A stretch of 64,000 nt of DNA from a phage: the NCBI GenBank assembly GCA_024682255.1, contig GCA_024682255.1_4716.1; one strand, given 5' to 3'. The notes under the pieces were generated by a model. The model searched no databases, was not told the origin of the DNA, and saw only the letters and a program-made list of their open reading frames with translations. Below are positions 1,963-63,333 of this stretch, piece after piece. Each line of letters opens with the position of its first letter. Position 1 is the first letter of the stretch. The position numbers were made by a program, and so were the translations under genes.

Positions 1963-1984
1963 GCTTTCTCCTACGCGGCATAAA

Positions 1985-2006
1985 AGCCTGCCCCGAAGGA
2001 CAGGCT
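1985..2006 (-). terminator. GC-rich hairpin (agcctg...caggct) followed on minus strand by TTTTATGCCG; same element as 62642-62665 in opposite orientation
   Basis: inverted repeat read directly; 28-nt identity to reverse complement of 62640-62668. Confidence 0.5.
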
Positions 2007-2015
2007 CGATAGAAC

Positions 2016-2216
2016 TTAACGACCATCCAATTTCAATGAAGGATGGTTGACGATATGTGCGTGTTTTGCTGGGTCATATAGCTGATATGGAAAATAGCCA
2101 TGCCATTGACGGCCTTGGCATTTCGTACACAAGAACTGACCAGCAGCTTGTCGATTCTCGTAAGCGAGTTCGGTACTATCAACATGACCGCAACGTTCGC
2201 AGATAAACAGCGACAT
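2016..2216 (-). CDS. small zinc-ribbon-like protein (two CxxC pairs)
   Basis: CERCGH ... CTKCQG cysteine pairs in 66-aa ORF. Confidence 0.5.
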   Translation of the reverse strand: MSLFICERCGHVDSTELAYENRQAAGQFLCTKCQGRQWHGYFPYQLYDPAKHAHIVNHPSLKLDGR

Positions 2217-2253
2217 AGCGCATCCCCATTCACTTGAACCTTTTGGTTCGGCA

Positions 2254-3234
2254 TTAGAAAAGCAAGAAACCGCTATTCTTCGCTTCCGCTACAGTTTCGT
2301 CACCAACTTTCGGTGCTTGTTGACGTGCGTTACGATGTTCGATGTAACGTTTCGCTTCGTCCGCGATCTGTTTGATAATACCCCCTAAACGATCGGTACT
2401 TAAAACAAACGACGTCGCTTCACGAATTGGGCTGCTTTCAGGCACAAAACCATCACAGCTGTAAATAGCGCTAACACCCATGACTTTGGTCGCGTCTTTC
2501 GGATAAAGCGTACAGAAAGCAATCGGGCTATCGTTCTCTTTCGTCCAATCGTATCCCATGAACGTATTCAGTTCGGTGATCGTTGGTTCCAAACCGGTAA
2601 CACGTGGATGGTTTAAGAAGTTTTCCAGGTCGGCGCTGTCAAGACGGCGGTTCTCGCCAGAAAACAGAACACAAAGCTGGCTGATAACAACCTGCACGTC
2701 CAGGTTGACATCCTGCTCCGATTTCCCATTTTCGCCATTCATGTGATAGCTAACAATCACTGGACGTTTCAACCCTTCTGCAGCAGCCATCAGTCCTTTG
2801 AAGGTGCGATCGGCGTTGATGGTTTGGCGTTCATCATCGAACGAGGCGACGATACAACACACCACACGTTCACCGCGTTCCAGCAGATTAGCAACCAACG
2901 CAGGACCGGCAACAGAACCTGAACCACCGCTCAAACTAAAGACCACGATATTAAATTTACCTGGTGTATGCTTATTGAGAATACCTGGGATTTGCGAGCA
3001 GATCAGTTCAGCGTTCTCGTCACGCTTCTTACCGGAACCGTCTAACTCACGACCAGCTGCATCTTTAAAGATGTAAATATGATCGTCGCCCAGTGTGCTA
3101 TCGCGTAGGTTAGCGCGGCTGGTATCAACATACGTCATGCTGTGTAATCCTTTCGCGACTTCGCCTTCAAATGCTGAGCCGATTTCGCCACCACAACCAC
3201 CAACAGCCCAAATATGTACTTGGTTCTCTTGCAT
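2254..3234 (-). CDS. phuZ: tubulin/FtsZ-superfamily GTPase, PhuZ-like phage tubulin
   Basis: N-terminal GGCGGEIG resembles tubulin T1 loop GQCGNQIG; SLSGGSGSVAG resembles tubulin signature GGGTGSG; ~326 aa as phage PhuZ; AGGAG SD. Confidence 0.65.
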   Translation of the reverse strand: MQENQVHIWAVGGCGGEIGSAFEGEVAKGLHSMTYVDTSRANLRDSTLGDDHIYIFKDAAGRELDGSGKKRDENAELICSQIPGILNKHTPGKFNIVVFSLSGGSGSVAGPALVANLLERGERVVCCIVASFDDERQTINADRTFKGLMAAAEGLKRPVIVSYHMNGENGKSEQDVNLDVQVVISQLCVLFSGENRRLDSADLENFLNHPRVTGLEPTITELNTFMGYDWTKENDSPIAFCTLYPKDATKVMGVSAIYSCDGFVPESSPIREATSFVLSTDRLGGIIKQIADEAKRYIEHRNARQQAPKVGDETVAEAKNSGFLLF

Positions 3235-3298
3235 GTGAACTCCTAACTTAATATGTATTTAACGCACAATGAATCTTTCTTTGCTAAAGGGGTGACCC

Positions 3299-4141
3299 AT
3301 GGGTGCTATTGACTACAGTGTAGATCGTATCTGTCGTACAATACCGGCAGATATCCTACAGTATTGCTATATCGATCGTTACGACTGGCGTAATCGCTAT
3401 CCTCGTTCCGTAGAAGACATCATTACCGATTGGGTAATCCGTAAACGGGTTATCGGCGACATCGATATCTACGGGGGACTACAAACCGTTATCCCCCTCG
3501 ATGATGCCGGTGTCACTATCGAAGAAGTCACCATTAACTGTTATGTTTTCCACATCCCGTTGGAAGCCACACAGGGACGTTATATCACGTCTGCATTATC
3601 CATTATTTCAGGGAGCGTGAACAACTACGGAATAAACTATAACGGGCAATGGGGTGCTTTCAACCAAACCCAGTTTCAACGTCAGCTTTGTGGGTGGAAC
3701 CCCGCAAGCAACACGTTACAGCAAGGGATGAACGCGTTCGGTCCCATGAACGTTCTTAGTACAGCCAACGTTGATATCATCGCCCCTAACACCATCATGG
3801 TGAACAACGTCACGCCTGTACAATTTCCCCTGAGTCTACGTTGTTTCCTTGCCCACGATCCGGAACTTACCAACCTCAGCATGGAGGTTTGGAACGACTT
3901 TTACAAACTCTGTTTATACGCCACACAAAGCGACATCTACAACAGAACCGTTATCCGTCTTGACAGAGGTGTTACAGCACAAGGACAAGAAGTCGGTGCA
4001 TTCAAGGAATACATCGATCGCTTTGCTGATGCTGAAAACACATATCAAGAATTCCTGAACGAAACGTGGGCGGGCGTTGCTGCCTGGAACGATCCACAAA
4101 CTAAACGTCGCGCTATTCGTTTGCAAACCGGTTACTTCTGA
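3299..4141 (+). CDS. hypothetical protein
   Basis: 280-aa ORF; followed by hairpin. Confidence 0.5.
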   Translation: MGAIDYSVDRICRTIPADILQYCYIDRYDWRNRYPRSVEDIITDWVIRKRVIGDIDIYGGLQTVIPLDDAGVTIEEVTINCYVFHIPLEATQGRYITSALSIISGSVNNYGINYNGQWGAFNQTQFQRQLCGWNPASNTLQQGMNAFGPMNVLSTANVDIIAPNTIMVNNVTPVQFPLSLRCFLAHDPELTNLSMEVWNDFYKLCLYATQSDIYNRTVIRLDRGVTAQGQEVGAFKEYIDRFADAENTYQEFLNETWAGVAAWNDPQTKRRAIRLQTGYF

Positions 4142-4668
4142 TTAACAACAGCTTCCTCCCTCGGTGTTTTTGAGGGAGGTATTTGCCGCTTGAACACTTT
4201 CAGCACGTTCGCAAATTCAGCAGCAATAATACAGGCCGAGGTTGATAGCTTATTGCTGAAAATGAGATCGTCCGGTAAACAATCGAACTGAATACCGTAT
4301 TGCGTCTTTGTCTCATCAACGATCAATGATGGTGTCGATCTTGTCTTCGCGATATCGGTGATATACAAACGTAAAAATAATTCACCGTCTTCGCTATCCA
4401 TAAAACGATAGGTGTTACCAGAAAACGCAACACATGGCGTAACGATAAATTGAACACGATCGTCGATCGGATGGATATTTAACCAACGTTCGATATCACT
4501 GCTACTCACATTCCGCATATTTACTACGGTAAAAGCAAATAGCGTATCGTGATGTTTGGAATAATGCAGCACATACGCCGCACCTTTCTTCCTGTGAATC
4601 CCTTCAATGTATTCTATTGTCGTATAGCCGGATTTATATAGCTTTACTTGCGGTTTCTCACTCATCAT
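4132..4668 (-). CDS. hypothetical protein (start moved to internal ATG overlapping upstream stop, TGATG)
   Basis: ORF track 4132-4749; ATGATGA start/stop overlap with upstream gene. Confidence 0.45.
   Translation of the reverse strand: MMSEKPQVKLYKSGYTTIEYIEGIHRKKGAAYVLHYSKHHDTLFAFTVVNMRNVSSSDIERWLNIHPIDDRVQFIVTPCVAFSGNTYRFMDSEDGELFLRLYITDIAKTRSTPSLIVDETKTQYGIQFDCLPDDLIFSNKLSTSACIIAAEFANVLKVFKRQIPPSKTPREEAVVNQK
4155..4179 (+). terminator. hairpin cctccctc/gagggagg followed by TATTTGCCG
   Basis: inverted repeat directly after stop of 3299-4141. Confidence 0.45.
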
Positions 4669-4964
4669 AACAACCCTTCCCGTTTCATCGCAGCACGCAT
4701 ACTTGCGTAAAGCGCATTCTTCATTGCACCTGGACGCAACGGATAACAAATCTCATATCGACGTCCTTGTTTTACAGCAATTTTCCTTCCATTCAGAAAC
4801 AACGTGCCATTATCCAGCAACAACTCACCTTGTAGTATCATGAGTCCTGCTTTAACATGACGTCCTTCTTCTTTCGTTAAGACCTTATAGCCATGTTTAT
4901 CCAATAACCACAATTCGTAGATACCACGCGCAGCCTTCGGCATTACTTTCTTCTTCGTCGTCAT
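4665..4964 (-). CDS. hypothetical protein
   Basis: 99-aa ORF in operon-like array. Confidence 0.45.
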   Translation of the reverse strand: MTTKKKVMPKAARGIYELWLLDKHGYKVLTKEEGRHVKAGLMILQGELLLDNGTLFLNGRKIAVKQGRRYEICYPLRPGAMKNALYASMRAAMKREGLL

Positions 4965-7204: not shown

Positions 7205-7459
7205 GATAAGAATCCTTAGTATGTTTGATATGTTGTTTAATTAACATATTAAGTTTAAAAGAGGTTATGTTTTACGTATTGTTAATAACGTATTCTTATC
7301 TCTATTAGGTTATGTTCTATCTAAAGATAGTAAACAGATATAATGCTCCCCACCTCCCCATTCTCCCAAGTAATACTGGCCTACCGGCCCTCTCCTTTTT
7401 AAGGGAGAGAGTAAGCATTCAGTATTGCTCAAATGAATAAGCAAAACAGTATAAACTTA

Positions 7460-7483
7460 CCGTCTCGAGTTGTCTCGAGACGG
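7460..7483 (-). terminator. perfect 10-bp stem hairpin ccgtctcgag-ttgt-ctcgagacgg downstream of 7513-7866
   Basis: inverted repeat read directly. Confidence 0.4.
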
Positions 7484-7512
7484 TGTAGTAGTATCTGTTT
7501 ATCTCTTTTATG

Positions 7513-10348: not shown

Positions 10349-10498
10349 CAACGTAACGGTAAAACTTTACTGACGTTGGTTATTATTTGAAGCATAGGGC
10401 TTCACCCAGGAGTACCATCCCTTTAAGTCGTTTGTCCTCTCCTGGTTAACTGTCGTTCTCTCACAGTGCTCGACAGACCAAAAATGCTCAGGCCTCAT

Positions 10499-10527
10499 AG
10501 CCTCCTCTGGGAATGGAACCCAGAGGA
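10499..10527 (-). terminator. 11-bp perfect stem hairpin cctcctctggg/cccagaggagg followed on minus strand by CTATGAGG
   Basis: inverted repeat read directly; sits in ~190-bp non-coding stretch. Confidence 0.35.
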
Positions 10528-10541
10528 GGACTATGTTTGCC

Positions 10542-10935: not shown

Positions 10936-13167
10936 TTAGAAAAAACCGCCCGGACGGTATTGACCCATCGTCATCCACGCATTACGAGAAATATTCCGTT
11001 CATTCGAAGAGCGGCTTATTTGACGATAAGTATTCGCTCGTTCCTCCCTTGCTTTCGTGATCATCGCATCAATAGAAACAGCCGCTGAATCTTCCCCACG
11101 TATTTTTCCTTTATACGTAAGAAGCTCTGCCTCCAATCGATCCAAGATAAGGCCGTTGGTTTCGGTCTTAAGCAACTCATAGATTTCAGCAACGCGTTGA
11201 CGTAGCTTCGCCTGCTGTTGGTTAAGATACGCTTCATACGGATCGATTTCACCCGTTACAGATGCCGGTAAACGACTCATGACTTTAAGCGGATCGATAC
11301 CGTAATGAATCTGTTTCTTAGCGCGCTTGATGAACCACATCGCTAACATCCAGGCGAACGTCATGTCATCATGCATTCCGTCCTGGTGGTCGACACGTCC
11401 ATCTTTGATAACCAATCCAAGGATCTCGGAACACAGCATCTTATCGCGTAACTGCCCGCGGGTTTCTACGATACCTTCCATCAAGATGTCGGAATACAAC
11501 TCCATGCGTTTGCGTGCATCCGTCGTGAAGCCCAAATGCCGTTTACGCTGAGCGTACCAACTTTCATCACGCATGCTCAATGGCAGTTTCAGGTCTTCGA
11601 ACATCGCTGGGTTATCAGCATGTCTGTCCACAATGGTGTTGTATACACGTTTGAACACGTCGATGCCTGCTTGTCTCAGGAACTCTTCAATCGCGTCTAA
11701 CAACATGATTGCACTGCTTTTACGTTCAGGAATCAACGTAACGTTCTTAAAACGCATCATGAAGTTGGCCATCCAACGAGCAAAAGAAAGCAGGCTCAGT
11801 TTATTAAAACGTCCTGTCGCAACAACTTCTGCTGTTTCCACATCCACCATCACCAAACCGATAGCATCACGACCTATTGCATCACTGGTGTCTAAACCAG
11901 CAACCACCTTATTGTTCTGCATGTATGTCTCGATTTTACCTCGAGGTATATACCAGTTAATGCAGTAGCCTTCAGGTGAGATCTCGATATGGTCGATTTC
12001 ACGTTGTCCTGCCATGATCATCTCAACCATCTCAGCGGTTAACGGGCTTTCTGCTGAACCGTTGGTCCAAATGTTCATGTAGTCACGGTCTTTCTGAAGT
12101 TTATCACCTTCCGTTTCGTTCATGGTTTTTGCTAACCATTCGTCACTGAATCCCAATTGAGCATGGTTCCATTGTGCCCCTATCCTGACGGTCGCTTTGC
12201 TAAGTTCACACGGTACGTTGTTCAATACCGTCTGATGCAGATGCTTTTCGTTACGGCAGTCAAAGAAACTTTCAGAGAACGGCGCTGAACGCATGAAAAC
12301 TTCATAAGCCCATTTGCCTTCGCGTTTATCCAATTCACCTGCTGTTGTCGTGTAGATGATACTTGTCAGGTCGCCGTTGCTTAATGCTTCATCGCGTGCC
12401 GCACCCATCGCACCGATACCAGCAGGAACAATGATTTCGATGTATTTCGTAAACGCGGTTTCGTCGCTATGGAATAGCGGGGTTGTTAGACCACGACCGA
12501 TGTTTGTTGCTTGTTTCTTATCCGAACGCGGAATCTTTACCGATAGCTTGTTCTTGAAACGCGTGTAGGTCACGTTCTCTTTGTTCGATGAATCGCGACT
12601 ATCCAGCGTCCAGAGATACGCAGGCAACAGATCGCGTATACTACGCACGTCTTCTACCGTTTTCGTACGGGCATCACCGTCTTTTGTTAACTGAATAACC
12701 TCGGTGTTTCGACTACGAACATAGGTTAGATAACAGAACAACCCTAACATGGTCATGGATTTACCCGTCTGACGTATCTGTATCTGATACCAGTTCGTTC
12801 GGGTAAATATCCCCCAGAGCATCGGAATGTTACCGCGGTTAGCACGGAATGAAATTTTGTTATCACCCGCTTTAGCCGGAACACGCATCACTTCACGGAA
12901 GAAGTACCACGGATTAAGATAGCATTCCGCACTGATCATCTGAATCTGTTCTGACGTCAAATTCGGTGCGTGGGGATCGACACCAATCAATCTTGGGTTT
13001 AATAACGCCATGAAAAACGCAGAGTTCCGGACACCGAATTCACGACGATACAAGATCGCTAAATCACGCCAACTTGTGTTTGTTGTTTCCCAGTGTGGAA
13101 CAGCCTGAGGAAAATAATCCCAATCTTCCTCAAACAGGATGATTTTCTTCGGATCGACAATCGACAT
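10936..13167 (-). CDS. terL: terminase large subunit
   Basis: Walker-A-like RQTGKSMTM near N-terminus; C-terminal nuclease-like acidic motifs (GLDTSDAIGRDAIGLV, VDHQDGMHDDMTFAWMLAMW); 743 aa. Confidence 0.8.
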   Translation of the reverse strand: MSIVDPKKIILFEEDWDYFPQAVPHWETTNTSWRDLAILYRREFGVRNSAFFMALLNPRLIGVDPHAPNLTSEQIQMISAECYLNPWYFFREVMRVPAKAGDNKISFRANRGNIPMLWGIFTRTNWYQIQIRQTGKSMTMLGLFCYLTYVRSRNTEVIQLTKDGDARTKTVEDVRSIRDLLPAYLWTLDSRDSSNKENVTYTRFKNKLSVKIPRSDKKQATNIGRGLTTPLFHSDETAFTKYIEIIVPAGIGAMGAARDEALSNGDLTSIIYTTTAGELDKREGKWAYEVFMRSAPFSESFFDCRNEKHLHQTVLNNVPCELSKATVRIGAQWNHAQLGFSDEWLAKTMNETEGDKLQKDRDYMNIWTNGSAESPLTAEMVEMIMAGQREIDHIEISPEGYCINWYIPRGKIETYMQNNKVVAGLDTSDAIGRDAIGLVMVDVETAEVVATGRFNKLSLLSFARWMANFMMRFKNVTLIPERKSSAIMLLDAIEEFLRQAGIDVFKRVYNTIVDRHADNPAMFEDLKLPLSMRDESWYAQRKRHLGFTTDARKRMELYSDILMEGIVETRGQLRDKMLCSEILGLVIKDGRVDHQDGMHDDMTFAWMLAMWFIKRAKKQIHYGIDPLKVMSRLPASVTGEIDPYEAYLNQQQAKLRQRVAEIYELLKTETNGLILDRLEAELLTYKGKIRGEDSAAVSIDAMITKAREERANTYRQISRSSNERNISRNAWMTMGQYRPGGFF

Positions 13168-13217
13168 ATAAACTCCTCCGATGGAGGGTGCTCGGCACCC
13201 TCCATCGTTGTATTACC

Positions 13218-17548: not shown

Positions 17549-18476
17549 GGCATGCCTCCAGGAGGTATTTCATGTTGGCTTGGAAATCATTGACGTCACG
17601 CGCCATACGACGCTGATCCGCCATGAGACGAGCCAACACGGTATCACGGTAACCACGATCGTGGTCAGCAGCAGAGCATAAAAGAATAAATGTTGGTGGG
17701 TGCTCTAAAGCAATCCCGGCAACTTCTTTACTATAACCCCCAACCCAACTGTAAGCGGTGATTTCAAACAACAACGCCTGGGTTAACGTGTTCAAACGGG
17801 GACTAATATTACTTTCTTTTAACGCTGTTACAAAAGCTGCCATGTTAGGGATATAACCCAGGTTTTCGGTTACGATACCGATGCTCGCAAAATCGTAACG
17901 AAGCGTTGTCTGGATGGTGCGCACCATAGTTAGTCTTTCATTATTTGTAAGGCTATCTTTAAACAAGCAAAGATAATACCATGCTGTTATGATGGCAACA
18001 TCGCGACGTTGTTGAAGGTCCAGTCCTAAACGTTGTGTGATTTGTCCGCTAATCCAATCACAAAAGACACGCATCGGGATAGGGCCAAGACGTTCAAAAG
18101 GGCGTGTGCCCAAGGATTCCCATCCTACCTGAAGATACGCACGTGATTGAAGAAAGTTATATTCACGTTCGTTAACAACGGTAGTACGCGATCCTGGGCG
18201 TGAAGTATCTGTTGGGGTGCGCGCGTAGGCGCGTTGGTCGATAACAACGCGCTGTCCGTCCATCACTGTTTTAATGACCAATGGATGACCAAAAGAAGGG
18301 ATATCGTCCAACGTATTTTTGTTGCCGATGACTTCGAGAACGGGAGTGTTTACGCCACTTTCTTCACCGGGTGCACTTAACAATCCGCCGACGTAAGCAA
18401 CTTCGATAGCGGTTCGGATACGGTCAATGCCTTTTAGTTTTGTTCCAACAGTTGTGTCGTAAGGAGAGATGAACAT
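17529..18476 (-). CDS. hypothetical protein
   Basis: 315-aa ORF; TTATATGCCG ~20 nt upstream of start. Confidence 0.5.
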   Translation of the reverse strand: MFISPYDTTVGTKLKGIDRIRTAIEVAYVGGLLSAPGEESGVNTPVLEVIGNKNTLDDIPSFGHPLVIKTVMDGQRVVIDQRAYARTPTDTSRPGSRTTVVNEREYNFLQSRAYLQVGWESLGTRPFERLGPIPMRVFCDWISGQITQRLGLDLQQRRDVAIITAWYYLCLFKDSLTNNERLTMVRTIQTTLRYDFASIGIVTENLGYIPNMAAFVTALKESNISPRLNTLTQALLFEITAYSWVGGYSKEVAGIALEHPPTFILLCSAADHDRGYRDTVLARLMADQRRMARDVNDFQANMKYLLEACRGVERF

Positions 18477-18619
18477 ATGTAATTCCTTTATTACGGCATA
18501 TAAGAAAACGGGTTAAGCACACAGATTTACGCATAATTGTAATATTTTACGTTATGCCTATGACATTGTGTCACGTGTGCAATTATGTCATACAATTTCC
18601 TTAAATTAAGGAGAGTTCC
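18477..18619. promoter_or_regulatory. divergent control region with TATGCC(G/T) motifs facing both flanking genes
   Basis: TTATATGCCG on minus strand and TTATGCCTATG on plus strand; AAGGAGAG SD before 18620. Confidence 0.35.
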
Positions 18620-21598: not shown

Positions 21599-21624
21599 CG
21601 TAAAAAAAAAAGCATATTAACCTC

Positions 21625-21661
21625 CCTTCCTTCCCTAGCCGTCAAGGCCGGGGAAGGAAGG
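21625..21661. terminator. bidirectional terminator: 11-bp stem ccttccttccc/gggaaggaagg, TTTATGG on plus side, A10 tract (U10 on minus) on the other
   Basis: inverted repeat plus flanking homopolymer at 21603-21612. Confidence 0.55.
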
Positions 21662-21673
21662 TTTATGGTTTAT

Positions 21674-22626: not shown

Positions 22627-22729
22627 AGCGCTAACCCCAAAGGATAAAAATAAAACCTTGACATAACCACCACCGCAACCCCATACAGGGCTACGGTGGG
22701 GTCATACAGAGAGACGTGTTAAGTTACAA

Positions 22730-24145: not shown

Positions 24146-24249
24146 CTTTTTAAATTCCTACTTAACAATAAAGTTCATATACGGCGTATGTATCCGTAGA
24201 ATAATGGGTTCTGGTAAGATCTTACATCAAAATGACGGCATAAAAAGTA

Positions 24250-24275
24250 CCTCCTTACCCATGTGGGTAAGGAGG
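24250..24275 (-). terminator. 12-bp stem hairpin cctccttaccca/tgggtaaggagg followed on minus strand by TTTTTATGCCG
   Basis: inverted repeat and motif read directly. Confidence 0.5.
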
Positions 24276-24427
24276 TTCGTCCATCACGACGAAAGGACGT
24301 TATGTGACGCGGTGTCCATAACGGCCCTGGTAGCAGGCATTAAAGATAACAAAAAGGATGTAAGTTGAGCTAAACCACCTAAATACGGTAACGATTACTT
24401 CCGTACACAATATAACGCAACATCTTT

Positions 24428-28284: not shown

Positions 28285-28517
28285 TACTGCGCTCCCTCCA
28301 ACGCATTACTACCTACGGGTTCTTTGGTTTCCAGACGGCTGTTTAAGCGCGCAGCAACCGCATCTTCCAATCCCAACGGCATAACCTTTTTGTTCACGTC
28401 AGGATCGGCGGCATCATTACCAACGGTTTGACGTACGACCTCAGCAACCAACGTTACCGCGTTCGTCAGCGCAACAAAGCTCGCTGCCCGAGCCGTGTTA
28501 AGTTGTTCTTGGTTCAT
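28284..28517 (-). CDS. hypothetical small protein
   Basis: 77-aa ORF with AAAAGGAAAAG SD region. Confidence 0.4.
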   Translation of the reverse strand: MNQEQLNTARAASFVALTNAVTLVAEVVRQTVGNDAADPDVNKKVMPLGLEDAVAARLNSRLETKEPVGSNALEGAQ

Positions 28518-28568: not shown

Positions 28569-28592
28569 GGTACTGCGTTCAGCGAAATAAAC

Positions 28593-28618
28593 GAGCAGGG
28601 GCATGACGCCCCCTGCTC
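28593..28618 (-). terminator. hairpin gagcagggg/cccctgctc abutting stop codon of beta-like gene, followed by GTTTATTTCGC
   Basis: inverted repeat. Confidence 0.5.
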
Positions 28619-29728
28619 TTATTTAGCGTCGTTAAAGTAAATATCAACAGCTCGTTCCGTTGCGTAGAGGAGACCAAGATTCACAGTCCCAACCACTTCC
28701 GGTGAACCGATGATACGGTTAGCGATACTGGTGCCACTGAAGATAGCATCAAGGGTGTGCCCGTCTTCGGTTTTGTTCACACCATGACCCACGGAAGAGA
28801 CAACGGATTTCGCTTGAGCTGCGAAGGTACCTTTATCACCCATCCCCGCACCAAGGTCGTAACGCATGAAAATACGGATGGCGATCTGGTTCTCGCCTAA
28901 CGGATTACCGTCTATTCTCACGTTACTGTTATTGATACGCCCCGTTGTTGCTTCGTTGAGTTTCAGTTCCTTAACGCGTTTAGCTCGTGCTTTATCCGCT
29001 TCACCGACGAGCGCTGCCATGGTTTCACTCATATCCTCAATCTGAGCGCGGTACAGTACATCGATCTGTACAACTTCACCATGAACGTCAGCACGTGGGT
29101 TATACTGACTCATACGACGTAATGCTTCAACGGCTTCCTGACTCTCATCACTCAGATCGGTTGCAATCGGTTCTTCCAGTGTTGCAAGGATCGTTCGAGG
29201 TTCAACGTGATCGCCGATTTTCACGAGACCGCGAATGTTGAGATGGGCGTCAACGATAAGCGTACGGCTCTTAATCGATGGTGTTACGAGACGATCGGCA
29301 AGATTGTCGAAGATATACGAACTGTCCTCGTGGGTCTCTGGAATATCCAGAATACCGACAAGAGACAGCACGCCTGCGCGCCAAACAACCTGACCTGGGT
29401 TCCACCAGTCGCGTTTAAAATAAAGACGATGGAAAACCACCACATCCTGATCCTTAACGCGATCCCCGACTTTATAATCGGTAATGAGATCGTGAGGATA
29501 ATACTTACCTGGTCCTTTCCCGATTATCGTACCGAGCTGGAAAACCTCTTCCCCTAACTCTGGATCGTCGTACTGTATCGTCAGCGCAGTTTTGGTGACC
29601 TTCTTGACAACACCATCGCCTTGGGCGGCAGCTGCGAAGAGTTTACCAACACGATGCGCGATAACAGTCTCACCGCCGGTGCGCCACGGTTGTACATCGT
29701 AACCTTCAGCAGCAATCATGCGGTTGTG
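28619..29728 (-). CDS. RNA polymerase beta-like subunit, exon 2 (track ORF 28619-29749 begins at an in-intron TTG that is not a real start)
   Basis: HNRMIAAEG matches beta ANRALMGAN; GDKGTFAAQAKSVVS matches beta GDKMAGRHGNKGVIS; frame open upstream into intron. Confidence 0.75.
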   Translation of the reverse strand, partial: HNRMIAAEGYDVQPWRTGGETVIAHRVGKLFAAAAQGDGVVKKVTKTALTIQYDDPELGEEVFQLGTIIGKGPGKYYPHDLITDYKVGDRVKDQDVVVFHRLYFKRDWWNPGQVVWRAGVLSLVGILDIPETHEDSSYIFDNLADRLVTPSIKSRTLIVDAHLNIRGLVKIGDHVEPRTILATLEEPIATDLSDESQEAVEALRRMSQYNPRADVHGEVVQIDVLYRAQIEDMSETMAALVGEADKARAKRVKELKLNEATTGRINNSNVRIDGNPLGENQIAIRIFMRYDLGAGMGDKGTFAAQAKSVVSSVGHGVNKTEDGHTLDAIFSGTSIANRIIGSPEVVGTVNLGLLYATERAVDIYFNDAK

Positions 29729-30264
29729 CTGTATACCTATAAATACCAATCTCTTGGGCGAATTTAGTTCTTATTCAACATAATCGTACTATTACCAGAA
29801 TAAGACTGAGATTAGATTGTTCAGATAAGGTCGTTGCTTGAAACGATCGTTTCAGCGCTCATCTTATCCCGGAGGCGACGATAGGCACATCACCTCCCGC
29901 TTGCGCTCTCACGCAAGAGCAGACTATATCACATCTCGTTTCAAACGGTGCTTCTTCAGCACCTCAACGAGAGTTCACTTCTTCCCAGCGCATCCAGCGC
30001 CATTCTCTTATCCAAGGAGAATGCCTCACTCGAGGGGTACAGGGGGATGAATCCCTTAGTCGTTGAACCTTTACCTTAGAACGCTTCACAGCGATCCTTA
30101 GGTACTTGGCTGCGGATTGTCCTTAAGCTATTATCTGTTTTTATACCATACCGTCTTTCTTTTCAGAATCCGTTTTGGTCGATAACAGCGATGGATGTCT
30201 TCGCAATTCAGTGAATCTCATCTACATGTCGCCACATAGACGGACCCTGCTATTAAAAGCGTTA
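29729..30264 (-). ncRNA. group I self-splicing intron (no ORF) in RNAP beta-like gene
   Basis: minus-strand P (AAUUGCGAAGA, 30198-30208), Q (AAUCCGCAGC, 30109-30118), R (GGUUCAACGACUAAGGGAUU, 30050-30069), S (GAUAUAGUC, 29922-29930) in canonical order; exon ends in U, intron ends in G. Confidence 0.8.
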
Positions 30265-33200
30265 ATCATCTCTATCAGCAGCAGGTACTGCAAGTGCTGA
30301 TGTACTCATTATTGACGAGCTACCATCCGTTTTCTCGTCGTAGGGTTTCGTTTCACCGTATACAGACACAATGTTTGCGTTAGGTGCAAGGTAAGCAGAG
30401 ATACCTACGTCCCCACTATCCTTCGTACCTTCGGATACAACACCAATGTCCGACTTGTCGTATTCACGATCGCGTGCGCGTCGAAGCGATGTCTTTGAAC
30501 GACCCCCAATACCGGTCATCGTCGCTTCTTCACCCTGCTTGATATCCAGCATCGGGTTGGTTTCATCGATCACGATGGAAGCACTGTCGTCGAGAATTTG
30601 GTTCCAGACACTTACCGGACTGATTGAGATTTTCTGGCGATTTCCTTGACTGCTGTTCTCATTCTGACGAATAGCGCCAACCAGATCCTTATACACCAAT
30701 TCAGCGAACTTATCGTACGTTTTAAAACGTTGGTAGTTCACATCGTTCGTGTTAGGAGCCCAATCATCCAGAAGCAATTCAACAGCACGCAGTAACAACA
30801 TGGCGAAATCGGTAGGTTCTCCCATGTTCTGCAGCAACATACGGCTTACCGGATCAACGAAAAGACGCTCCATGAGTTCAAGTTCGCGTAAATGACGAAC
30901 CTTAAGTCCGGCACCATCGACAACGTTAAAATAGATATCTCGATTGTCAAAAGCGCCGCGAGCGTAACCAATGTAGTTACGGTATTCGTTAAACCCACCC
31001 AGCAACAACGTCGTCATGCGGTCGTCTTTACTGAAGATCAAACTTTCGTCGTCAAAGCTCACCGCGAATTCATCGGGTGCTAGACCCATACGAGAACCGC
31101 GAGGTACCGTACGATAGTTTGCTTTAAGATGTTCTAATAACGGGGTGAGTCCGCCCAGATAACTTAGAACAACACCGACCGGAATACGTACACCCATGAA
31201 TTCAAGATCGGCAGCTTCGATCGGCATCTTGGCCGCATTGATGCCGAAGAAATCAGGGAACGTCCCTACAGGTGTTGGTGTTTGTCCTGACTGACAGATA
31301 TAGAGCTGATTGCGTTTATCGATTGCTAAGAATTCACCCAGCGTGTTACGCGCAAACGTCAGGAGCCCTTCGGCTAACTGTTCGTTGAACCGATCTTCCC
31401 CAATGAACTCCGGTAGCGTTTTTATATCGAGACGTATATCCCAATCAGCAAATTGGATTTGGGTATAATTGCGCGCAAGCACAGCGAAGTAGTACGGAAC
31501 TTTGACAGCTGGATCAAAGACGTTACCACGTTTTAACGTGGTTAAGGGTGAGGACTTATCGTAATACATCGCTGTAAGTTGACGTGTTAGCCAACGACCC
31601 GCATTATTAACGACGCGCTCTGAACGTTTAACAAACACCTTACCGTAGGCGGTACTCAATGCAACTTCGGATGACGATACCTTTCTAATAGGTTTATCAA
31701 CACGTTGTTTACGCATCCGGTATTTGATGCCGTTAACGACATAAATGCCGTCCTTACGAACCTTCGGCAACATCACCGGGAACGTGGTCGGGACACCGCC
31801 TACAGGAGCCAGTTTAATCGTGATGACTTGATAATCCCCCATCACGTCAACGACATCTTCAACTTTATATCCCGTGACAGGGTAACCTGCCTGCTGTACC
31901 GCAACAACGGCAGCTGCGATGTCCTTTTGCATTACGTGTTCGACGTAATGTTTATCCCACACCGCGAGCGTCGATTTACATAAGCTCTTGTCGACGATAA
32001 CATCCGCTTCCGGCATAACCTTTGCAGGCGCTAATTTCGCGGCTTTTGGTTTAACTTCAACATACTCGGCAAGTGTTAATCCAGAACCGTCGGGTGCTTC
32101 GATTTCGTGAATGGCATCGGCGTTACGCATCGCTGCTTTATATTGGACACCGCTTAACTGACCCGCATCGGCCAGATCGCTCGCGCGTACCAACACCGCA
32201 TCCGATAACGACTGAATATATTCACCATGTGTTTTTGGTAACGTTGTCGCATCAAAGACATCAACCTTTTCTTCTTCGGTATCGTCGGTAACGACTTCGA
32301 AGAGATCGTCGGTAATGTCCTGATCTTCATCGGGTTGGAAATCCGGCTGTACTTCTACCCCGGGTACTTCACGGACATCTTCGAACGAGCGTTCTACAAT
32401 GGCGTTCCACGCATCAGCGTCATCGTCTTCATCCGAACCACCGACCAACTCCGCTTCTAACTCATCGGGATCAAGAACGGTAGCCAGATCCTCACCGTTA
32501 GGAAGCACGACGTCGCGATCATCGTACTCCGCATCCGGGCTGTCTGCAAGAATATCCCGCTCTTGACGAAGAACCTGTTCCTCTTCTTGTTTCTGTTCTT
32601 CTTCATTCGCGCTCTGCGACCACAGACGTGTTACCGCCATCATCCAACGACGCTGGAAGGTTTCGAGTGTCGTTTTATCGAGTTCTTCCCCTTCCTTTAC
32701 AAGTCCGGTACGCCATTCTTCCAGCAAGCCGAGATTCAGCGTAAAGAAGTACACACCGTCTGTAAATACAACGTTAAGCTTATCCAGCGTGGCCCTGTCT
32801 AACGAAGCCATCGTGCTGTTCTCACGATCGGTTCCCAGCCAGCGGAAGAAGTCAAAGAACGACAGCTCCTCCGGTGTGGCGAAATTCATGAGGTTGTTAC
32901 GGGTCGGTGCCTGTTGCGTGGTACGCATCAACGAAATCTTCGGCAATGTTGACGGTATACGGAACAACAAAAAGTGTTGACGATCGCTTTGCTGTGCGAT
33001 TTCGTTGGCTTTCGACCAAATTGTTTTACGTACGTTGAACCATTCATCATACCAACGGGTGAGCGTTGGACGATAAATGTACATGTGGTTAAGATGCGCG
33101 TAGTTAGCAACGATCTGAGCGTTGATGTTTTTCTCTACCGTGCTTAGATCGGTAACCAAACGAAAACGACGATGTGATGCACGATAATCCAATTTCGCTC

Positions 33201-33471
33201 GTGGGAGTTGGAATCGTTGATCGCGTCGAGGTGCGCCCTGTTTGGTTGCGAGATCATCAGCAAACGAAATCCATAGTTGAGCACTTTCTTTACTCAGCAT
33301 GTATTCGTTTTCTGGAGGACCTATCAACGATGGATCCGTTGCGGTGTAATGATAGACAGCATAACGCGGCAGCTGCAATAGCTGCACTAAACGTAATCTC
33401 GGTGATAGTAGCTCTTGGTAGCGTCTGACACCGAACTGTCGGTAGTAATCAAGGTATTTAAGTTTTGCCAT
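30265..33471 (-). CDS. RNA polymerase beta-like subunit, exon 1 (includes ~450-500 aa non-RNAP N-terminal extension)
   Basis: MTGIGGRSK...SGDVGISAYLAPNAN matches beta ALGPGGLTRERAG...PEGPNIGLINSLSVYAQTN; C-terminal VPAADRDD matches beta IPFLEHDD. Confidence 0.8.
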
Positions 33472-33654: not shown

Positions 33655-35731
33655 CCTTTTCTTCGCCTCAGGTCGCTACGCTGAGACCGCCTGCGTGGAT
33701 ACGTACATCACAGGCTGCTTGCACTTTCATGCAAGAGGAGACTATATCAAACCGTCAGCTTCACCTTCTCGATCGTATCGAGAATGCGGTGCTGAAGTAT
33801 TCTTCAGCAGCACCTGCTACGGTAACCTACACTTCGAAGACGCTTGTCCTCTACAGGGTGGTAAATCCCTTAGTCGTTGAACCTGCGTTGTTTCACATTC
33901 TTGTTTGCAAGAATGCCGTATTGCTACGCAACAACCAGGCTGCTGATTGCCCATTATCACGCACCTTAGCACCGCTTACGCGGCTTTTCTTTCAGCCTAA
34001 GCCTCCGTGGGAGGTAATGTCTGATTAAATCAGACATCGCCAGGAGGTAGTGCATCTCAACTGTTGTTTCCGCCTTTCGGCACCTCATGGGTTGTTGAGC
34101 TTTAGGGGTTCCCAGCAATTCGTAGGTTTTTCAAGCACTCCCTTTCGGGAATACCGGACCATTACCCTTTAGCTAATTTATTTAAGTATCTGAAATCCCA
34201 CTTATCTTTGCGTCTATTTTCGCACTTAATAGCTTGGTTCTTTATTCTCCAAGCCACCTTTGTTTTAGGTAATTGGCTGTAATTGGCCGCTGACGCAGTA
34301 CCTAAAACAACGGTTACGGTACCATCGGGTTTAGTAATCTCTACAGCGCGATAATGCTTACGTAACACATTACGCCAATATTCACGGCGTTCTGGCTCAG
34401 CATACTCAAGCATATAACCGTTGGTATCGACCAGACCGTAACACTCGTTTAAACGAGAGGTAGCGGCCGGTCTACTAATACCGATTGCTTTAGCCGCGTC
34501 AACCACGGTTTTATACGGGGTTTCATTACCGTCTCTATCTACAACCACAATAAAATCTGGACGCGAATCGAGCAGCTGCTGTCTTCGTTCAAGGGCTTGT
34601 TGATGAAGCACCTTGTTAACATGTTCGAACCCGTAACCTTCTGGACCGCGCCACCCTGGATTGTTATTCGCTCGATAAAGTACCGTCGCTGATTTCACTC
34701 CAGTCTGACGTGACGCCTCGTTTGCACTATGAACAACCGTGGTAGAGCCGTCAGGGTGATATATCCGTATCTGGTTCATTATACCGGAACCAACAAAATT
34801 ACCATCAGCTGATTTAATATCCGGCCATGGTTGAGGATTATCCTTGAATTTAACCACCCAACGACTGTTAAACAATTTGACTTTCCGGGCATGTTTACCC
34901 ATTGTCGTATCCGTAACACCAGCTACAACAGAGGCTTGCGTGATACTCAGGTACTCAGTAACGGTATCGTCCCATGTATCCCAGAGCAGAACCGGTTTAT
35001 TGTCGTCGCGTAAACCGTGTTCGATAGCATGCAGGACATTACGACTTCTGGTTGCCCATTCAAGGTTGTCAAGAGAATAGTTCCACTTATCGGCATCAAG
35101 ATGGTTAACGTCCATCCTATCGACATCGGCTGGATACTCTCTCCACGCCAGCATTAGACAACGGTGTAATACCTTGCTACCGGCCTTCTGGCGACAATCA
35201 TGTTTCAAGCAGACAGTAACGTAACGGTTCGTTACGAAACACGGGCGACAAATGCTCCCGTCTTTTCTGTCCCTGATATCACCTACTTCGTTTATTACAT
35301 ATCTCGTCAGTCCTGGAATAACGCGATAGCCAGGATACTTAGCGATTTCATAAGCGGGCTCGAACCGATAGGATAAATTATCAACATCCCAGTTAGATTC
35401 GTCACCATCAACAAACATCGCTTTGACGTATTTCTGTGTTTCAATATCAACCAGGATGTTTTTGTGTGCGATACAAATCAATGCTGGGATATTGAATTCG
35501 CGACCGGCTAAGATAACCGTGTCGCCATCTCTCGGTACCTCGACGTGGGTATCGCGATACCGCAAGTTTCCATAGCCGTCTATTTCAATCCAGCTTAGAA
35601 ACGGAATAGATATAAATTCTTTTTCAGATACTCGCCATTTAAACATATAAACCCCTGTATAACCTTACTGTCACACTAAGAGGTTTATCTGTAAATTCTT
35701 ACAGAATGGCGTAATTTTACTAAAAGGGCCG
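33655..35731 (-). mobile_element. group I intron carrying an HNH homing endonuclease gene, inserted in beta-prime-like gene
   Basis: minus-strand P (AAUUGCUGGGAA, 34109-34120), Q (AAUCAGCAGCC, 33939-33948), R (33864-33883), S (33740-33748); HNH ORF upstream of core; 5-prime boundary by homology. Confidence 0.7.
34162..35646 (-). CDS. HNH homing endonuclease (HNH_3-type with NUMOD/IENR-like HTH modules), intron-encoded
   Basis: motif NHLDADKWNYSLDNLEWATRSRNVLHA; C-terminal AAKAIGISRPAATSRLN HTH-like repeats. Confidence 0.85.
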   Translation of the reverse strand: MFKWRVSEKEFISIPFLSWIEIDGYGNLRYRDTHVEVPRDGDTVILAGREFNIPALICIAHKNILVDIETQKYVKAMFVDGDESNWDVDNLSYRFEPAYEIAKYPGYRVIPGLTRYVINEVGDIRDRKDGSICRPCFVTNRYVTVCLKHDCRQKAGSKVLHRCLMLAWREYPADVDRMDVNHLDADKWNYSLDNLEWATRSRNVLHAIEHGLRDDNKPVLLWDTWDDTVTEYLSITQASVVAGVTDTTMGKHARKVKLFNSRWVVKFKDNPQPWPDIKSADGNFVGSGIMNQIRIYHPDGSTTVVHSANEASRQTGVKSATVLYRANNNPGWRGPEGYGFEHVNKVLHQQALERRQQLLDSRPDFIVVVDRDGNETPYKTVVDAAKAIGISRPAATSRLNECYGLVDTNGYMLEYAEPERREYWRNVLRKHYRAVEITKPDGTVTVVLGTASAANYSQLPKTKVAWRIKNQAIKCENRRKDKWDFRYLNKLAKG

Positions 35732-46300: not shown

Positions 46301-46319
46301 TATTCACCGCATAAACCCC

Positions 46320-46351
46320 CCTCTCCCTTCCCTGATGGGTCGGGAGAGGGA
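46320..46351 (+). terminator. hairpin ccctctccc/gggagaggg followed by ATTATG
   Basis: inverted repeat after stop of 44159-46300. Confidence 0.5.
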
Positions 46352-46356
46352 TTATG

Positions 46357-47424: not shown

Positions 47425-47462
47425 CACGTCCTCCTGAAAAAGAAAAAAGAAATACGGCATAA

Positions 47463-47490
47463 AGCCTACCCACACAATGGTGGGTAGGCT
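47463..47490 (-). terminator. hairpin agcctacccac/gtgggtaggct followed on minus strand by TTTATGCCG then T-rich run
   Basis: inverted repeat and motif. Confidence 0.55.
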
Positions 47491-54534: not shown

Positions 54535-54542
54535 CATAATAA

Positions 54543-54578
54543 CCCACCCTACTACCCCGTTAAGGGCGGTAGGGTGGG
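54543..54578 (+). terminator. 10-bp stem hairpin cccaccctac/gtagggtggg followed by TTTATTTGCCG
   Basis: inverted repeat. Confidence 0.5.
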
Positions 54579-54585
54579 ATAAGGT

Positions 54586-55017
54586 TTATTTGCCGTATAG
54601 ATGTACCACTCGTTGTGTCGTAGGAACGCAGACTCTTACCAGAAGTTTCTTAATCTCCTGACGAATCGTTGCTTTATCGTCATAATAAAGCCACGGTGGA
54701 ACGCGCTGCATTATGCACTGCACGGCTTCATCGTAGTTCGCCGTCTCATTAAGTAACGTCTCACTATCCAGATCTTTCCATGCAGTAATACCAAGTCGCG
54801 CAGCAAACATCAACGCTGAAACCGACTCAGCTATCTCCAATCGCTCATTCATATCCGCAAGACCTTTTAGCATGATGTAATTATCATCATACTGATGTAA
54901 AGTGCCATACAAACTTCCGAAGAGAAGTATACGTTTAGCTTTTGCGGTTAAGAGGAACGACAGGAGAGCGTGTTTCAACGGTTGTTTCTCACGTTCTACC
55001 TGTTCGACCATCACCAT
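54586..55017 (-). CDS. hypothetical protein
   Basis: 143-aa ORF. Confidence 0.45.
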   Translation of the reverse strand: MVMVEQVEREKQPLKHALLSFLLTAKAKRILLFGSLYGTLHQYDDNYIMLKGLADMNERLEIAESVSALMFAARLGITAWKDLDSETLLNETANYDEAVQCIMQRVPPWLYYDDKATIRQEIKKLLVRVCVPTTQRVVHLYGK

Positions 55018-59173: not shown

Positions 59174-59179
59174 CATATT

Positions 59180-59211
59180 CCCTCCTCCTTCCCTGTTGGG
59201 TTGGAGGAGGG
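59180..59211 (+). terminator. hairpin ccctcctcc/ggaggaggg followed by TTATGCCG
   Basis: inverted repeat after stop of 58541-59173. Confidence 0.5.
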
Positions 59212-59220
59212 TTATGCCGT

Positions 59221-59270
59221 CAAGCAAAAAAAAAAAATGATAGTCACAGGCTCTCCAATGAAGGAGAGCC
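59221..59270 (-). terminator. canonical intrinsic terminator for minus strand: hairpin ggctctcc/ggagagcc followed by U12 tract
   Basis: inverted repeat 59249-59270 and A12 run at 59226-59237 on plus strand. Confidence 0.6.
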
Positions 59271-59282
59271 GTGACCGTCAGT

Positions 59283-60957: not shown

Positions 60958-61052
60958 CTCCCCTACATACGCATCTTGAAGATCGGTTAAAAACAACAAA
61001 AGAAAAAACGATATAAAGCAAGGTCCTCTGATATCAGAGGACCTTGGATCAA

Positions 61053-61709: not shown

Positions 61710-61859
61710 GAATGAAATCTCGCTGGCTTACTTCACTTAAGTAATATAGCCGTGAAAAATGATGGAATAAGTTAAATACCGCAACCGCCGCTAATTTTAT
61801 AGGCTTTTAGCCTAAACCAATCATCTTCGGAATCATCATCTTTGAAACAGGAACCTATC

Positions 61860-62636: not shown

Positions 62637-62641
62637 TCATC

Positions 62642-62665
62642 AAGCCTGTCCTTCGGGGCAGGCTT
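62642..62665 (+). terminator. hairpin with UUCG tetraloop (gcctgtcc-ttcg-gggcaggc) followed by TTTTATGCTG
   Basis: inverted repeat; reverse-complement copy of element at 1985-2006. Confidence 0.55.
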
Positions 62666-62744
62666 TTATGCTGTTAAATATCAGGAATAAGAATTAACAA
62701 AATAGGAAAATGGTGTGAATATAACACAAAGGAGGGAGATGATT

Positions 62745-62861
62745 ATGTTACTCATTCTAATGGAGAGAGCGTTGCTGGCGGGTATCTGCGCATTCTCTGT
62801 TAAACACGCTGTTGCTATCATGGCTGAAGAAAGGCGTAATACGCATAATGTATTACGCTGA
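62745..62861 (+). CDS. candidate 38-aa hydrophobic small protein
   Basis: AAGGAGGGAG SD 8 nt upstream of ATG; below ORF-track length cutoff; translation MLLILMERALLAGICAFSVKHAVAIMAEERRNTHNVLR. Confidence 0.4.
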   Translation: MLLILMERALLAGICAFSVKHAVAIMAEERRNTHNVLR

Positions 62862-62929
62862 AAACACTGTGTGCATTAGTGTATGACGAGAAATCGTCGA
62901 GGCCCCCGTCTTCACGAGGGCCAACACCT

Positions 62930-63280
62930 ATGCATGATTATTCATCGTCTGTTAAACAAAAGGTTATAAACATGAGCAATTTGAACGTTGAATTTACTTC
63001 AACAACGCCTGTCATGAATGGTGTTGGCACTGAAACCAAAATCGTATTAGAACCCATTCCAGGGTTACGTGATCTCGGTGATTTTTATCCACTGATGCCG
63101 CGTATACGGAAGGCCTTAAACAGTATCGATCTTGATTCTAATAAAGATTTCCAACACGATACAGAAAATACCGATCATGTGTTGCTACCGTCAGGGATCG
63201 CAAAATTCACCTACACGCAAACATTGAAAGCCTCCGATGGTGAAATCCGTCGTTTTATCGTTGAAGTAGAAAGCGCATAA
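62930..63280 (+). CDS. hypothetical protein (track starts at GTG 62879; ATG 62930 or 62972 more likely)
   Basis: ORF track; GAGGG before 62930. Confidence 0.4.
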   Translation: MHDYSSSVKQKVINMSNLNVEFTSTTPVMNGVGTETKIVLEPIPGLRDLGDFYPLMPRIRKALNSIDLDSNKDFQHDTENTDHVLLPSGIAKFTYTQTLKASDGEIRRFIVEVESA

Positions 63281-63285
63281 AAACC

Positions 63286-63315
63286 ATCCTCCCAACCCGT
63301 AAGGGAAGGGAGGAT
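63286..63315 (+). terminator. hairpin atcctccc/gggaggat followed by AAATATGCCG
   Basis: inverted repeat. Confidence 0.5.
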
Positions 63316-63333
63316 GAAATATGCCGTTAAACG

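Follow-up and report, generated by a model that had tools for sequence, protein, structure and literature searches.

Transcript-end mapping of phage phiKZ by Oxford Nanopore Technologies (ONT)-cappable-seq has defined 149 start sites, 66 of which are late, and 133 termination regions, and 61 terminators identified from mapped transcript 3' ends carry the motif BCCYCCCCHWWDGGGRRGGBYTTATKYYGT, with six overlapping bidirectional terminator regions located between convergent genes (Putzeys 2024, PMC10914365). In phage 201phi2-1, motif A (n = 59) "strongly resembles" the phiKZ motif, and uninfected Pseudomonas chlororaphis served as host for terminator-trap assays of eight strong terminators spanning different motifs (PMC11512511). 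The phiKZ late promoter is T(-3)ATG(+1), every position of which is needed by the purified non-virion RNA polymerase but which is not sufficient (Yakunina 2015, PMC4666361), and cryo-electron microscopy has located in the beta-like subunit of that polymerase, GP123, a specific pocket for the non-template 5'-TATG-3' with G at +1 (PMC12809450). Here we describe a 64,000-nucleotide (nt) stretch of phage DNA (GenBank assembly GCA_024682255.1, contig GCA_024682255.1_4716.1; hereafter the window), in which a GC-rich hairpin followed by TTATGCCG recurs as a module. These modules are very probably phiKZ-type intrinsic transcription terminators of nucleus-forming jumbo phages (Chimalliviridae); the module is a known signal extended to a relative of phage Goslar, and not a new kind of element.

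An 8-kb sample of the window is 97.8% identical to Escherichia phage vB_EcoM_Goslar, a chimallivirus and nucleus-forming jumbo phage with a genome of 237,307 bp. In a BLAST comparison of the whole window with the Goslar genome, assembled from six fetched pieces, the window aligned with Goslar 178603-237307 and then 1-4859 at ~95-97% identity, with one surplus stretch of 547 nt at window 29749-30295. Erwinia phage Ea35-70, the next-closest in the collection, shares only 32% identity in its tail-sheath protein, and as Goslar stands at ~97%, the window is assigned on sequence identity to a second phage of the Goslar lineage. Genes were called by transferring the 247 annotated Goslar coding sequences by tblastn, in place of greedy open reading frame (ORF) calling, which had mis-called several genes; the transfer yielded 61 genes, including those for RNA polymerase beta subunits, and 34 intergenic regions of at least 20 nt.

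The recurring module in the window is real. It consists of a GC-rich RNA hairpin, a gap of 0-8 nt (usually 0-3 nt and T-rich) and TATG, mostly extended to TATG-C-Y-G-T. A reading made earlier from the sequence only had reported about a dozen such hairpins, each as a single module; the loci are real, and all ten hairpins that it quoted are present with their tails, but convergent hairpins carry the motif on both strands, and the curated list therefore holds 13 hairpin loci and 20 strand-specific modules. Hairpins of -20 kcal/mol or below within 5 nt of TATG number 13, against 0.25 ± 0.43 (maximum 1) in 60 dinucleotide-preserving shuffles, so that the count against shuffled controls proposed in the sequence-only reading shows enrichment. 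With a threshold of -15 kcal/mol, and the hairpin ending no more than 5 nt before TATG, the window holds 19 against 5.65 ± 2.3 in 40 dinucleotide shuffles. Hairpins were found by RNA folding, which replaced a Watson-Crick-only finder that had missed most modules because many stems hold G.U pairs, and the search was limited to compact single hairpins, unfiltered local folding having given too many spurious structures. Rfam has no family for the module hairpins, its only matches in the window being two group I introns.

The same signal emerges from the whole Goslar genome, where TATG is the most enriched of the 256 4-mers in the 0-5 nt past strong intergenic hairpins (16 vs 2.7 expected, p = 1e-8), with TTAT second and ATGC third. 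A hairpin precedes 66 of the 215 intergenic TATGs of Goslar, and the tails of these 66 modules show T at -1 (59%), TATG, and then C (53%), Y (73%), G (54%) and T (50%). At the 108 hairpin-less, non-start intergenic TATGs of Goslar the C-Y-G-T extension was not found, nor was any extended promoter-like consensus found around its hairpin-less intergenic TATGs. The tail word of the sequence-only reading thus keeps its TATG core and the T that usually precedes it, but its GCCG is not strict (C 53-63%, Y 73-78%, G 54-69%, T 50-57%). The spacer from the last base pair to TATG is 0-3 nt in 46 of 57 Goslar modules; in the window, the 0-4 nt given earlier agrees with most modules (0-3 nt), but the spacer reaches 6-10 nt at 24249, 54543(+), 21625(-) and 13179. 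The variant tail TATTTGCCG, also listed earlier, is not significant as a word by itself (2 vs 0.66 expected) but agrees with the phiKZ consensus as published when K is T.

The word TTATGCCG occurs nine times in the window, against 2.38 expected. A strong hairpin precedes four of these copies (1976, 24236, 47455 and 59212; upstream 45-nt folds of -21 to -26 kcal/mol), and the other five have no hairpin (-3.8 to -7.4 kcal/mol) and lie within genes in the sense orientation, at 28257, 28377, 32011 and 51220 on the minus strand and 44370 on the plus strand. The copy at 28377-28384 lies 93 nt upstream of the start of a gp209-like gene. These five copies might be internal late promoters or might have arisen by chance, as ~2.4 copies are expected on both strands together.

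The Goslar RefSeq record labels five hairpins of the window "putative transcriptional terminator" (noted below as labelled in Goslar), and no description of the tail shared by the Goslar hairpins was found in the literature searched. The modules and the hairpins to be compared with them are as follows.

1976-2007, minus strand: putative terminator module; hairpin 1984-2007, GAGCCTGTCC-UUCG-GGGCAGGCUU, -17.4 kcal/mol, then TTATGCCGC, TATG at 1982-1979; stop codon of upstream gene 2019-2216 11 nt before the stem, next gene 17 nt past the G; labelled in Goslar.
4155-4188, plus strand: putative terminator module with variant tail; hairpin 4155-4179, then TATTTGCCGC; 13 nt past the stop codon of gene 3299-4141 (plus) and inside the 3' end of the convergent gene 4132-4668 (minus).
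10496-10535, both strands: putative bidirectional terminator at a convergent junction; hairpin 10501-10529 with CTATG on both sides (plus 10532-10535, minus 10499-10496); identical in Goslar.
13165-13207, minus strand: doubtful member of the class; hairpin 13179-13207, -24.7 kcal/mol, then GAGGAGTTTATATG, the ATG of the tail being the start codon of the terminase large subunit gene.
21613-21667, both strands: putative bidirectional terminator between tail genes; hairpin 21625-21661, -28 kcal/mol, plus-strand tail TTTATGG, minus-strand tail GAGGTTAATATGC.
22662-22701, minus strand: putative terminator module; hairpin 22668-22701, then GTTATGTC.
24236-24276, minus strand: putative terminator module; hairpin 24249-24276, 6-nt spacer, tail ACTTTTTATGCCGTC.
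28583-28620, minus strand: putative terminator module of the K = T variant; hairpin 28591-28620, then TTATTTCGC; directly 3' of an RNA polymerase beta-subunit gene; labelled in Goslar.
46310-46356, both strands: putative bidirectional terminator at a convergent junction; hairpin 46319-46350, plus-strand tail ATTATGTT, minus-strand tail GGGTTTATGCGG.
47455-47490, minus strand: putative terminator module; hairpin 47463-47490, then TTATGCCGT; next gene 34 nt past the G.
54538-54595, both strands: putative bidirectional terminator at a convergent junction; hairpin 54543-54578, minus-strand tail TTATTATGTT, plus-strand tail ATAAGGTTTATTTGCCGT; labelled in Goslar.
59174-59219, both strands: putative bidirectional terminator; hairpin 59180-59211, CCCTCCTCC-UU-CCC-UGUU-GGG-UU-GGAGGAGGG, a member of the 32-nt family described below; plus-strand tail TTATGCCGT, minus-strand tail AATATGTT.
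59226-59280, minus strand: putative conventional terminator, given for contrast; hairpin 59238-59280, then a run of 12 T.
61005-61046, minus strand: putative terminator of intermediate form; hairpin 61019-61046, then CTTTATATCGTTTTTTC (TTTAT, then a T-run); labelled in Goslar.
62642-62674, plus strand: putative terminator module; hairpin 62642-62665, its stem nearly the same as that of 1984-2007, then TTATGCTGT; labelled in Goslar.
63276-63327, both strands: putative bidirectional terminator at a convergent junction; hairpin 63285-63316 with GUAA / UUAC loop, plus-strand tail AAATATGCCGTT, minus-strand tail GTTTTTATGCGC.

At the convergent junction 59174-59282, the phage-type bidirectional hairpin (59180-59211) and the conventional T12 hairpin on the minus strand stand in tandem. 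The arbitrary start of the Goslar record falls on this same bidirectional hairpin, and the ends of the record overlap, as window 59187-59237 matches both its last 50 nt and its first 50 nt.

The position of the modules relative to genes is what a transcript end would have. A gene reads into the hairpin at all 20 modules of the window, mostly with 4-28 nt between stop codon and stem, and no co-directional gene lies downstream of 13 of these 20 and of 24 of 55 modules in Goslar. The 55 classifiable Goslar modules comprise 31 with genes reading both in and out, 19 with a gene reading in only, 5 with neither and none with a gene reading out only, compared with 36%, 13%, 36% and 15%, respectively, expected from all Goslar intergenic sequence. 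A gene thus reads into 50 of the 55 (49% expected), and the promoter-only position is taken by none (14.6%, or ~8, expected); promoter orientation is not enriched (56% vs 51% expected), and the next start codon lies anywhere between 13 and 800 nt past the G of TATG. Because of these class counts, it is the upstream gene that sets the orientation of a module, and not the downstream gene. At the six convergent junctions of the window that have a module, the motif flanks a single hairpin on both strands, and 26 of 57 Goslar modules occur in such bidirectional pairs. Among post-stop hairpins in Goslar, a TATG tail is found at ~43 of 88 genes, versus 8 with a T-rich tail (at least 6 T in 10 nt).

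Predicted folding bears on whether the hairpin acts in RNA or in DNA. The RNA fold is stabler on the motif strand at 19 of 25 unidirectional loci (sign test p = 0.007, Wilcoxon p = 0.009), these loci having been chosen blind to strand and with TATG on one side only; an earlier form of this test was biased by selection on motif-strand energy, and its strand-neutral repeat gave the same result. A G.U pair on the motif strand would be an A-C mismatch on the other. At 22668-22701, two substitutions in the 3' arm relative to Goslar turn a G-C and a U-A pair into G.U and U.G, and do so on the motif strand only. These folding predictions suggest, indirectly, that the hairpin acts in RNA.

Stems in the window range from -16 to -28 kcal/mol. 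Most modules have a C/Y-rich 5' arm and a G/R-rich 3' arm (CCYCCCC...GGGRRGG; e.g., CCCTCCTCC..GGAGGAGGG, CCTCCCTC..GAGGGAGG and CCCACCCTAC..GGTAGGGTGGG), and a minority have other GC-rich stems (AGCCTACCCAC, GAGCCTGTCC). Many stems belong to a bipartite 32-nt family, which can be described as CCCTCYYCC, a 2x2 internal loop (AA/AA or UU/UU), CCC, a tetraloop (GUAA, GUGA or UUAC), GGG and GGRRGAGGG, giving a stem of 9 bp, the 2x2 loop and 3 bp; the remaining modules have unrelated GC-rich stems, some with UUCG loops. Clustered at 75% identity, 57 Goslar hairpins fall into 36 clusters, namely one of 20 members, two pairs and 33 singletons, and the singletons alone show the tail TATG-C(63%)-Y(78%)-G(69%)-T(57%). 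Conservation of the tail is independent of repeat ancestry, and it is not a repeat artefact because 33 of the 36 clusters are singletons with the same tail. In the alignment of the 32-nt family all 192 cells pair, with double (compensatory) changes in 5 of 12 pairs; this alignment holds both strands of some loci and so cannot separate RNA from DNA by itself. At two loci, window 22668-22701 and 46319-46350, the hairpin tip is flipped relative to Goslar and the outer stem is unchanged. The loop at 22668 reads TGTATG where Goslar has the reverse complement CATACA, and the inner hairpin at 46319, TTCCC-TGAT-GGGTC, is approximately the reverse complement of AACCC-GTGA-GGGAA in Goslar. Such flips possibly arise by template switching inside the palindrome.

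The terminator reading is supported because the modules follow upstream genes and match the phiKZ terminator consensus. It corresponds to the fallback of the sequence-only reading, a phage-specific terminator replacing the usual U-tract, which the position past stop codons, bidirectionality, RNA-strand folding and phiKZ consensus all favor. In the proposed mechanism, the nascent RNA would form a GC-rich hairpin, typically C/U-rich in its 5' arm and G/A-rich in its 3' arm and in many cases capped by a stable tetraloop, and a short interrupted U-stretch, (U)UUAU, followed by G-C-Y-G-U would replace the long U-tract. Modules would in this way end transcription units 4-28 nt past stop codons, and at convergent gene pairs one palindromic hairpin with the motif on both strands would halt transcription from both directions. 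The conserved tail is presumably read by the multisubunit RNA polymerases of the phage, beyond its contribution of weak rU:dA pairing.

Several points weigh against this reading. No transcript-end data for this phage or for Goslar were found in the literature searched, and termination here is therefore argued by analogy with the 3'-end mapping and reporter assays in phiKZ and 201phi2-1, along with the orientation, position and RNA-strand bias seen in the window and Goslar. By itself, the mapping of 3' ends in phiKZ cannot tell true termination apart from trimming of the 3' end as far as a protective hairpin. Some modules depart from the usual form, with spacers of 6-10 nt or, at 13179, a tail whose ATG is the terminase start codon, and a further hairpin near 35647-35688, which precedes TTTATATG, shows poor conservation in Goslar and was kept out of the curated set. 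Finally, a pure terminator model leaves unexplained that the tail holds the late-promoter core TATG exactly; no discussion of a reason for a start-site motif inside a terminator tail was found in the literature searched.

TATGs of a different kind lie upstream of structural genes. In P119L, the best-studied late promoter of phiKZ, a single TATG with neither hairpin nor C-Y-G-T stands ~45 nt before gene 119. In the window, hairpin-less TATGs are found ~24-66 nt upstream of several genes that open divergent units (gp233-, gp224-, gp188- and gp219-like genes, and that of the tail sheath), among them the TATGCC copies that the sequence-only reading had correctly placed upstream of the genes starting at 18476 and 18620. 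The candidates in this last region are as follows.

18494-18503, minus strand: candidate late promoter core, hairpin-less TTATATGCCGT, ~21-24 nt upstream of the virion-protein gene start at 18476.
18552-18566, plus strand: candidate late promoter cores, hairpin-less GTTATGCCTATGAC, ~55-66 nt upstream of the tail-sheath gene start at 18620.
About 36 nt upstream of the tail-sheath gene start at 18620: additional TATG, candidate late promoter core.

The divergent intergenic region 5' of the sheath gene contains three sheath-strand TATGs in each of the window, Ea35-70 and Salmonella phage SPFM2. By analogy with phiKZ, it is plausible that these hairpin-less TATGs upstream of structural genes are late promoters, a 4-nt motif not being verifiable by sequence; the study of Wicke (2020) covers early infection only.

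The presence of this core in the module tail was the basis of the preferred interpretation in the sequence-only reading, that the modules are fused, the hairpin ending the upstream transcript and the adjacent TATG (G = +1) starting a late transcript by the non-virion polymerase. The TATG consensus that it gave for phiKZ late promoters was correct, T(-3)ATG(+1) being the necessary core with the G as start site (PMC4666361), and 9 of the 26 co-directional Goslar modules put this G 33-51 nt before the next start codon, near the spacing of the hairpin-less window candidates (~24-66 nt) and of P119L (~45 nt). As a class, however, the modules do not lie upstream of co-directional genes, given the 13 of 20 in the window and 24 of 55 in Goslar that have none downstream, the empty promoter-only class, and the unenriched promoter orientation and scattered start distances described above. 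The C-Y-G-T extension is moreover missing both from the 108 hairpin-less TATGs of Goslar and from P119L, which also has no hairpin, and the terminator consensus permits T in place of G (K), yet initiation requires every position of TATG. The fused interpretation thus fails as a general description and is, in our judgment, unlikely; individual modules do lie upstream of a co-directional gene (e.g., 47461 and 22665), and it is possible that some co-directional modules have promoter activity. A further observation that would suit a start signal is the avoidance of TATG within Goslar genes on both strands. Measured against synonymous-codon shuffles over all Goslar coding sequence, sense TATG occurs 730 times versus 1065 expected (ratio 0.69, z = -15), which makes it the third most depleted of the 256 4-mers, and antisense TATG (CATA) has a ratio of 0.74; TATC, TATT, CATG and GATG show no depletion in the same genes. 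Sense ratios elsewhere are 0.58 in SPFM2, 0.84 in Ea35-70 and 0.88 in phiKZ, with controls of 0.98 in E. coli K-12 (50 kb) and 0.91 in T4 (50 kb). Given these controls, host codon-pair bias does not account for the avoidance, which is pronounced in Goslar and SPFM2 but in phiKZ and Ea35-70 does not exceed the level of T4. This fits TATG as a phage polymerase signal in the Goslar lineage, but avoidance does not tell a start from a stop.

The remaining alternatives concern what else a post-stop hairpin might do. The modules could be RNA 3'-end processing or stability elements, with transcripts reading through, a nuclease cutting in the UUAUG tail and the hairpin shielding the mRNA from 3' exonucleases. 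The post-stop position and RNA-strand bias fit this equally well, and mapped 3' ends cannot tell processing from termination; against it stand the eight 201phi2-1 terminators, which were chosen for strong termination and tested in a terminator trap (PMC11512511), and the sharing of the tail by phages of Pseudomonas, Erwinia and Escherichia with sheaths only 28-32% identical, which is easier to reconcile with a conserved phage factor than with host nucleases. We consider processing improbable. More improbable still is a dispersed palindromic repeat, similar to repetitive extragenic palindromic (REP) sequences or miniature inverted-repeat transposable elements (MITEs), or a DNA signal for recombination, replication or packaging, in which the tail would be shared by common descent. 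The family of ~20 near-identical 32-nt hairpins in Goslar and the inverted tips at two loci are what such a repeat might produce, but the 33 unrelated singleton stems with the same tail and the strong orientation of modules by the upstream gene largely refute it, and G.U pairs favor the transcribed motif strand. Lastly, the 3' arm of many modules has a Shine-Dalgarno-like GGAGG placed 2-8 nt ahead of the ATG of TATG, and at five Goslar modules this ATG is an annotated start codon, so that the modules might start translation of small peptides. ORFs from module ATGs, however, are similar in length to those at control intergenic TATGs (median 17 vs 14 codons), and the GGAGG is sequestered in stems of -17 to -28 kcal/mol; this reading was rejected, and its probability is very slight.

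With termination as the preferred function, the TATG of the tail might itself be explained if the start-site motif of the polymerase were reused during elongation, capture by the TATG pocket pausing the enzyme. A GP123-type pocket would grip TATG in the transcription bubble with the RNA 3' end paused at ...UUAU, 3-7 nt past the hairpin, and such a pause would let a hairpin with almost no U-tract free the transcript. The same capture could permit immediate re-initiation at co-directional junctions, a form of polymerase recycling. We offer this tentatively, as a mechanism with a small chance of being correct; if true, it would cover the retention of the tail across very distant chimalliviruses, the avoidance of TATG in Goslar genes, and the presence of the same four bases at transcript starts and ends. 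The overlap of the tail with the late-promoter core raises the question of how a multisubunit polymerase that lacks sigma might employ a single DNA pocket both where a transcript starts and where it ends.

Two group I introns and two long intergenic regions were noticed in the course of this analysis. The first intron (RF00028, 56.3 bits; Rfam match 29900-30266, minus strand) lies within window 29749-30295 and splits the gene for a large RNA polymerase beta subunit into ORFs 28619-29749 and 30262-33471; this stretch of ~547 nt is absent from Goslar, where gp207 is continuous, a presence/absence difference between phages that are ~97% identical. The second (RF00028, 57.9 bits; 33718-34180, minus strand) occupies the same place as the Intron_gpI annotated in Goslar and adjoins a gp206-like ORF, 34177-35646, that is weakly similar to phiKZ ORF179. 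The part of the window most diverged from Goslar, 34005-35310 (88-92% identity), flanks this second intron. Long intergenic regions without an annotated Goslar gene are found at 7205-7512 (308 nt) and 24146-24427 (282 nt), and might encode small RNAs. The former contains a perfect 11-bp palindrome with two XhoI-like sites at 7459-7484 (ACCGTCTCGAG-TTGT-CTCGAGACGGT) and no TATG tail, and the latter contains the putative terminator hairpin 24249-24276 and a second hairpin at 24294-24328.

The modules provide an annotation rule, a GC-rich hairpin followed within 0-3 nt by TATGCYGT, for ~45 transcription-unit ends in Goslar-type genomes. Terminator finders that rely on a U-tract detect such ends only partly, and the Goslar record marks 5 of the 13 window loci. 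Goslar is the E. coli model of phage-nucleus biology, and compact, probably polymerase-specific bidirectional terminators could therefore serve as engineering parts. Phages that infect Pseudomonas, Erwinia and Escherichia, and that have structural proteins only ~30% identical, share this one signal, which argues that it is read by conserved phage RNA polymerases.

The canonical bacterial intrinsic terminator is a GC-rich hairpin followed by a U-tract of 7-9 nt. The modules resemble it in having a GC-rich hairpin just past a stop codon and U-rich first nucleotides, and a few conventional terminators appear to coexist with them in the window (59238-59280 with T12; 61019-61046). They differ from it in that the U-stretch is only (U)UUAU before the conserved G-C-Y-G-U, the tails (T)TTATGCYGT containing no U-tract of 7-9 nt. 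Compared with the phiKZ late promoter, the module tail has the identical 4-nt core TATG, but the hairpin-linked TATGs are oriented by the upstream gene, about half face no gene, and they carry the C-Y-G-T extension that promoters lack.

Among related phages, 42 kb of Ea35-70 searched with the same pipeline yielded hairpins followed by TATGCYG. Seoulvirus (SPN3US-like) Salmonella phage SPFM2 (33 kb) likewise has TAT directly after the hairpin, but its tail runs on as a T-run, TATTTTTT, and not as GCYGT, with TATG in one strong module only; the family-wide tail therefore seems to have two forms with a common initial TAT. The study of RNA binding by ChmC in Goslar and PhiPA3 reported no motif. 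The closest counterpart is the phiKZ terminator motif, as both have a C-rich/G-rich stem-loop, TTAT, G or T, YY and GT. The commonest tail of the window, TTATGCCGT, is a literal instance of TTATKYYGT, and both TTATTTCGC (28589) and phiKZ's own TATTTCGT are of the K = T form. As a positive control, the same pipeline applied to 50 kb of phiKZ recovered this architecture, including the CATAA...TTATG flanks of bidirectional hairpins. The two phages further share the post-gene position of the element, its bidirectional use at convergent gene pairs, virus family and two multisubunit phage RNA polymerases. They differ in that the phage of the window has E. coli as its host and belongs to a distant lineage (tail sheath ~28% identical), and in that many of its stems are longer and bipartite and its tail is more sharply TATGCYGT.

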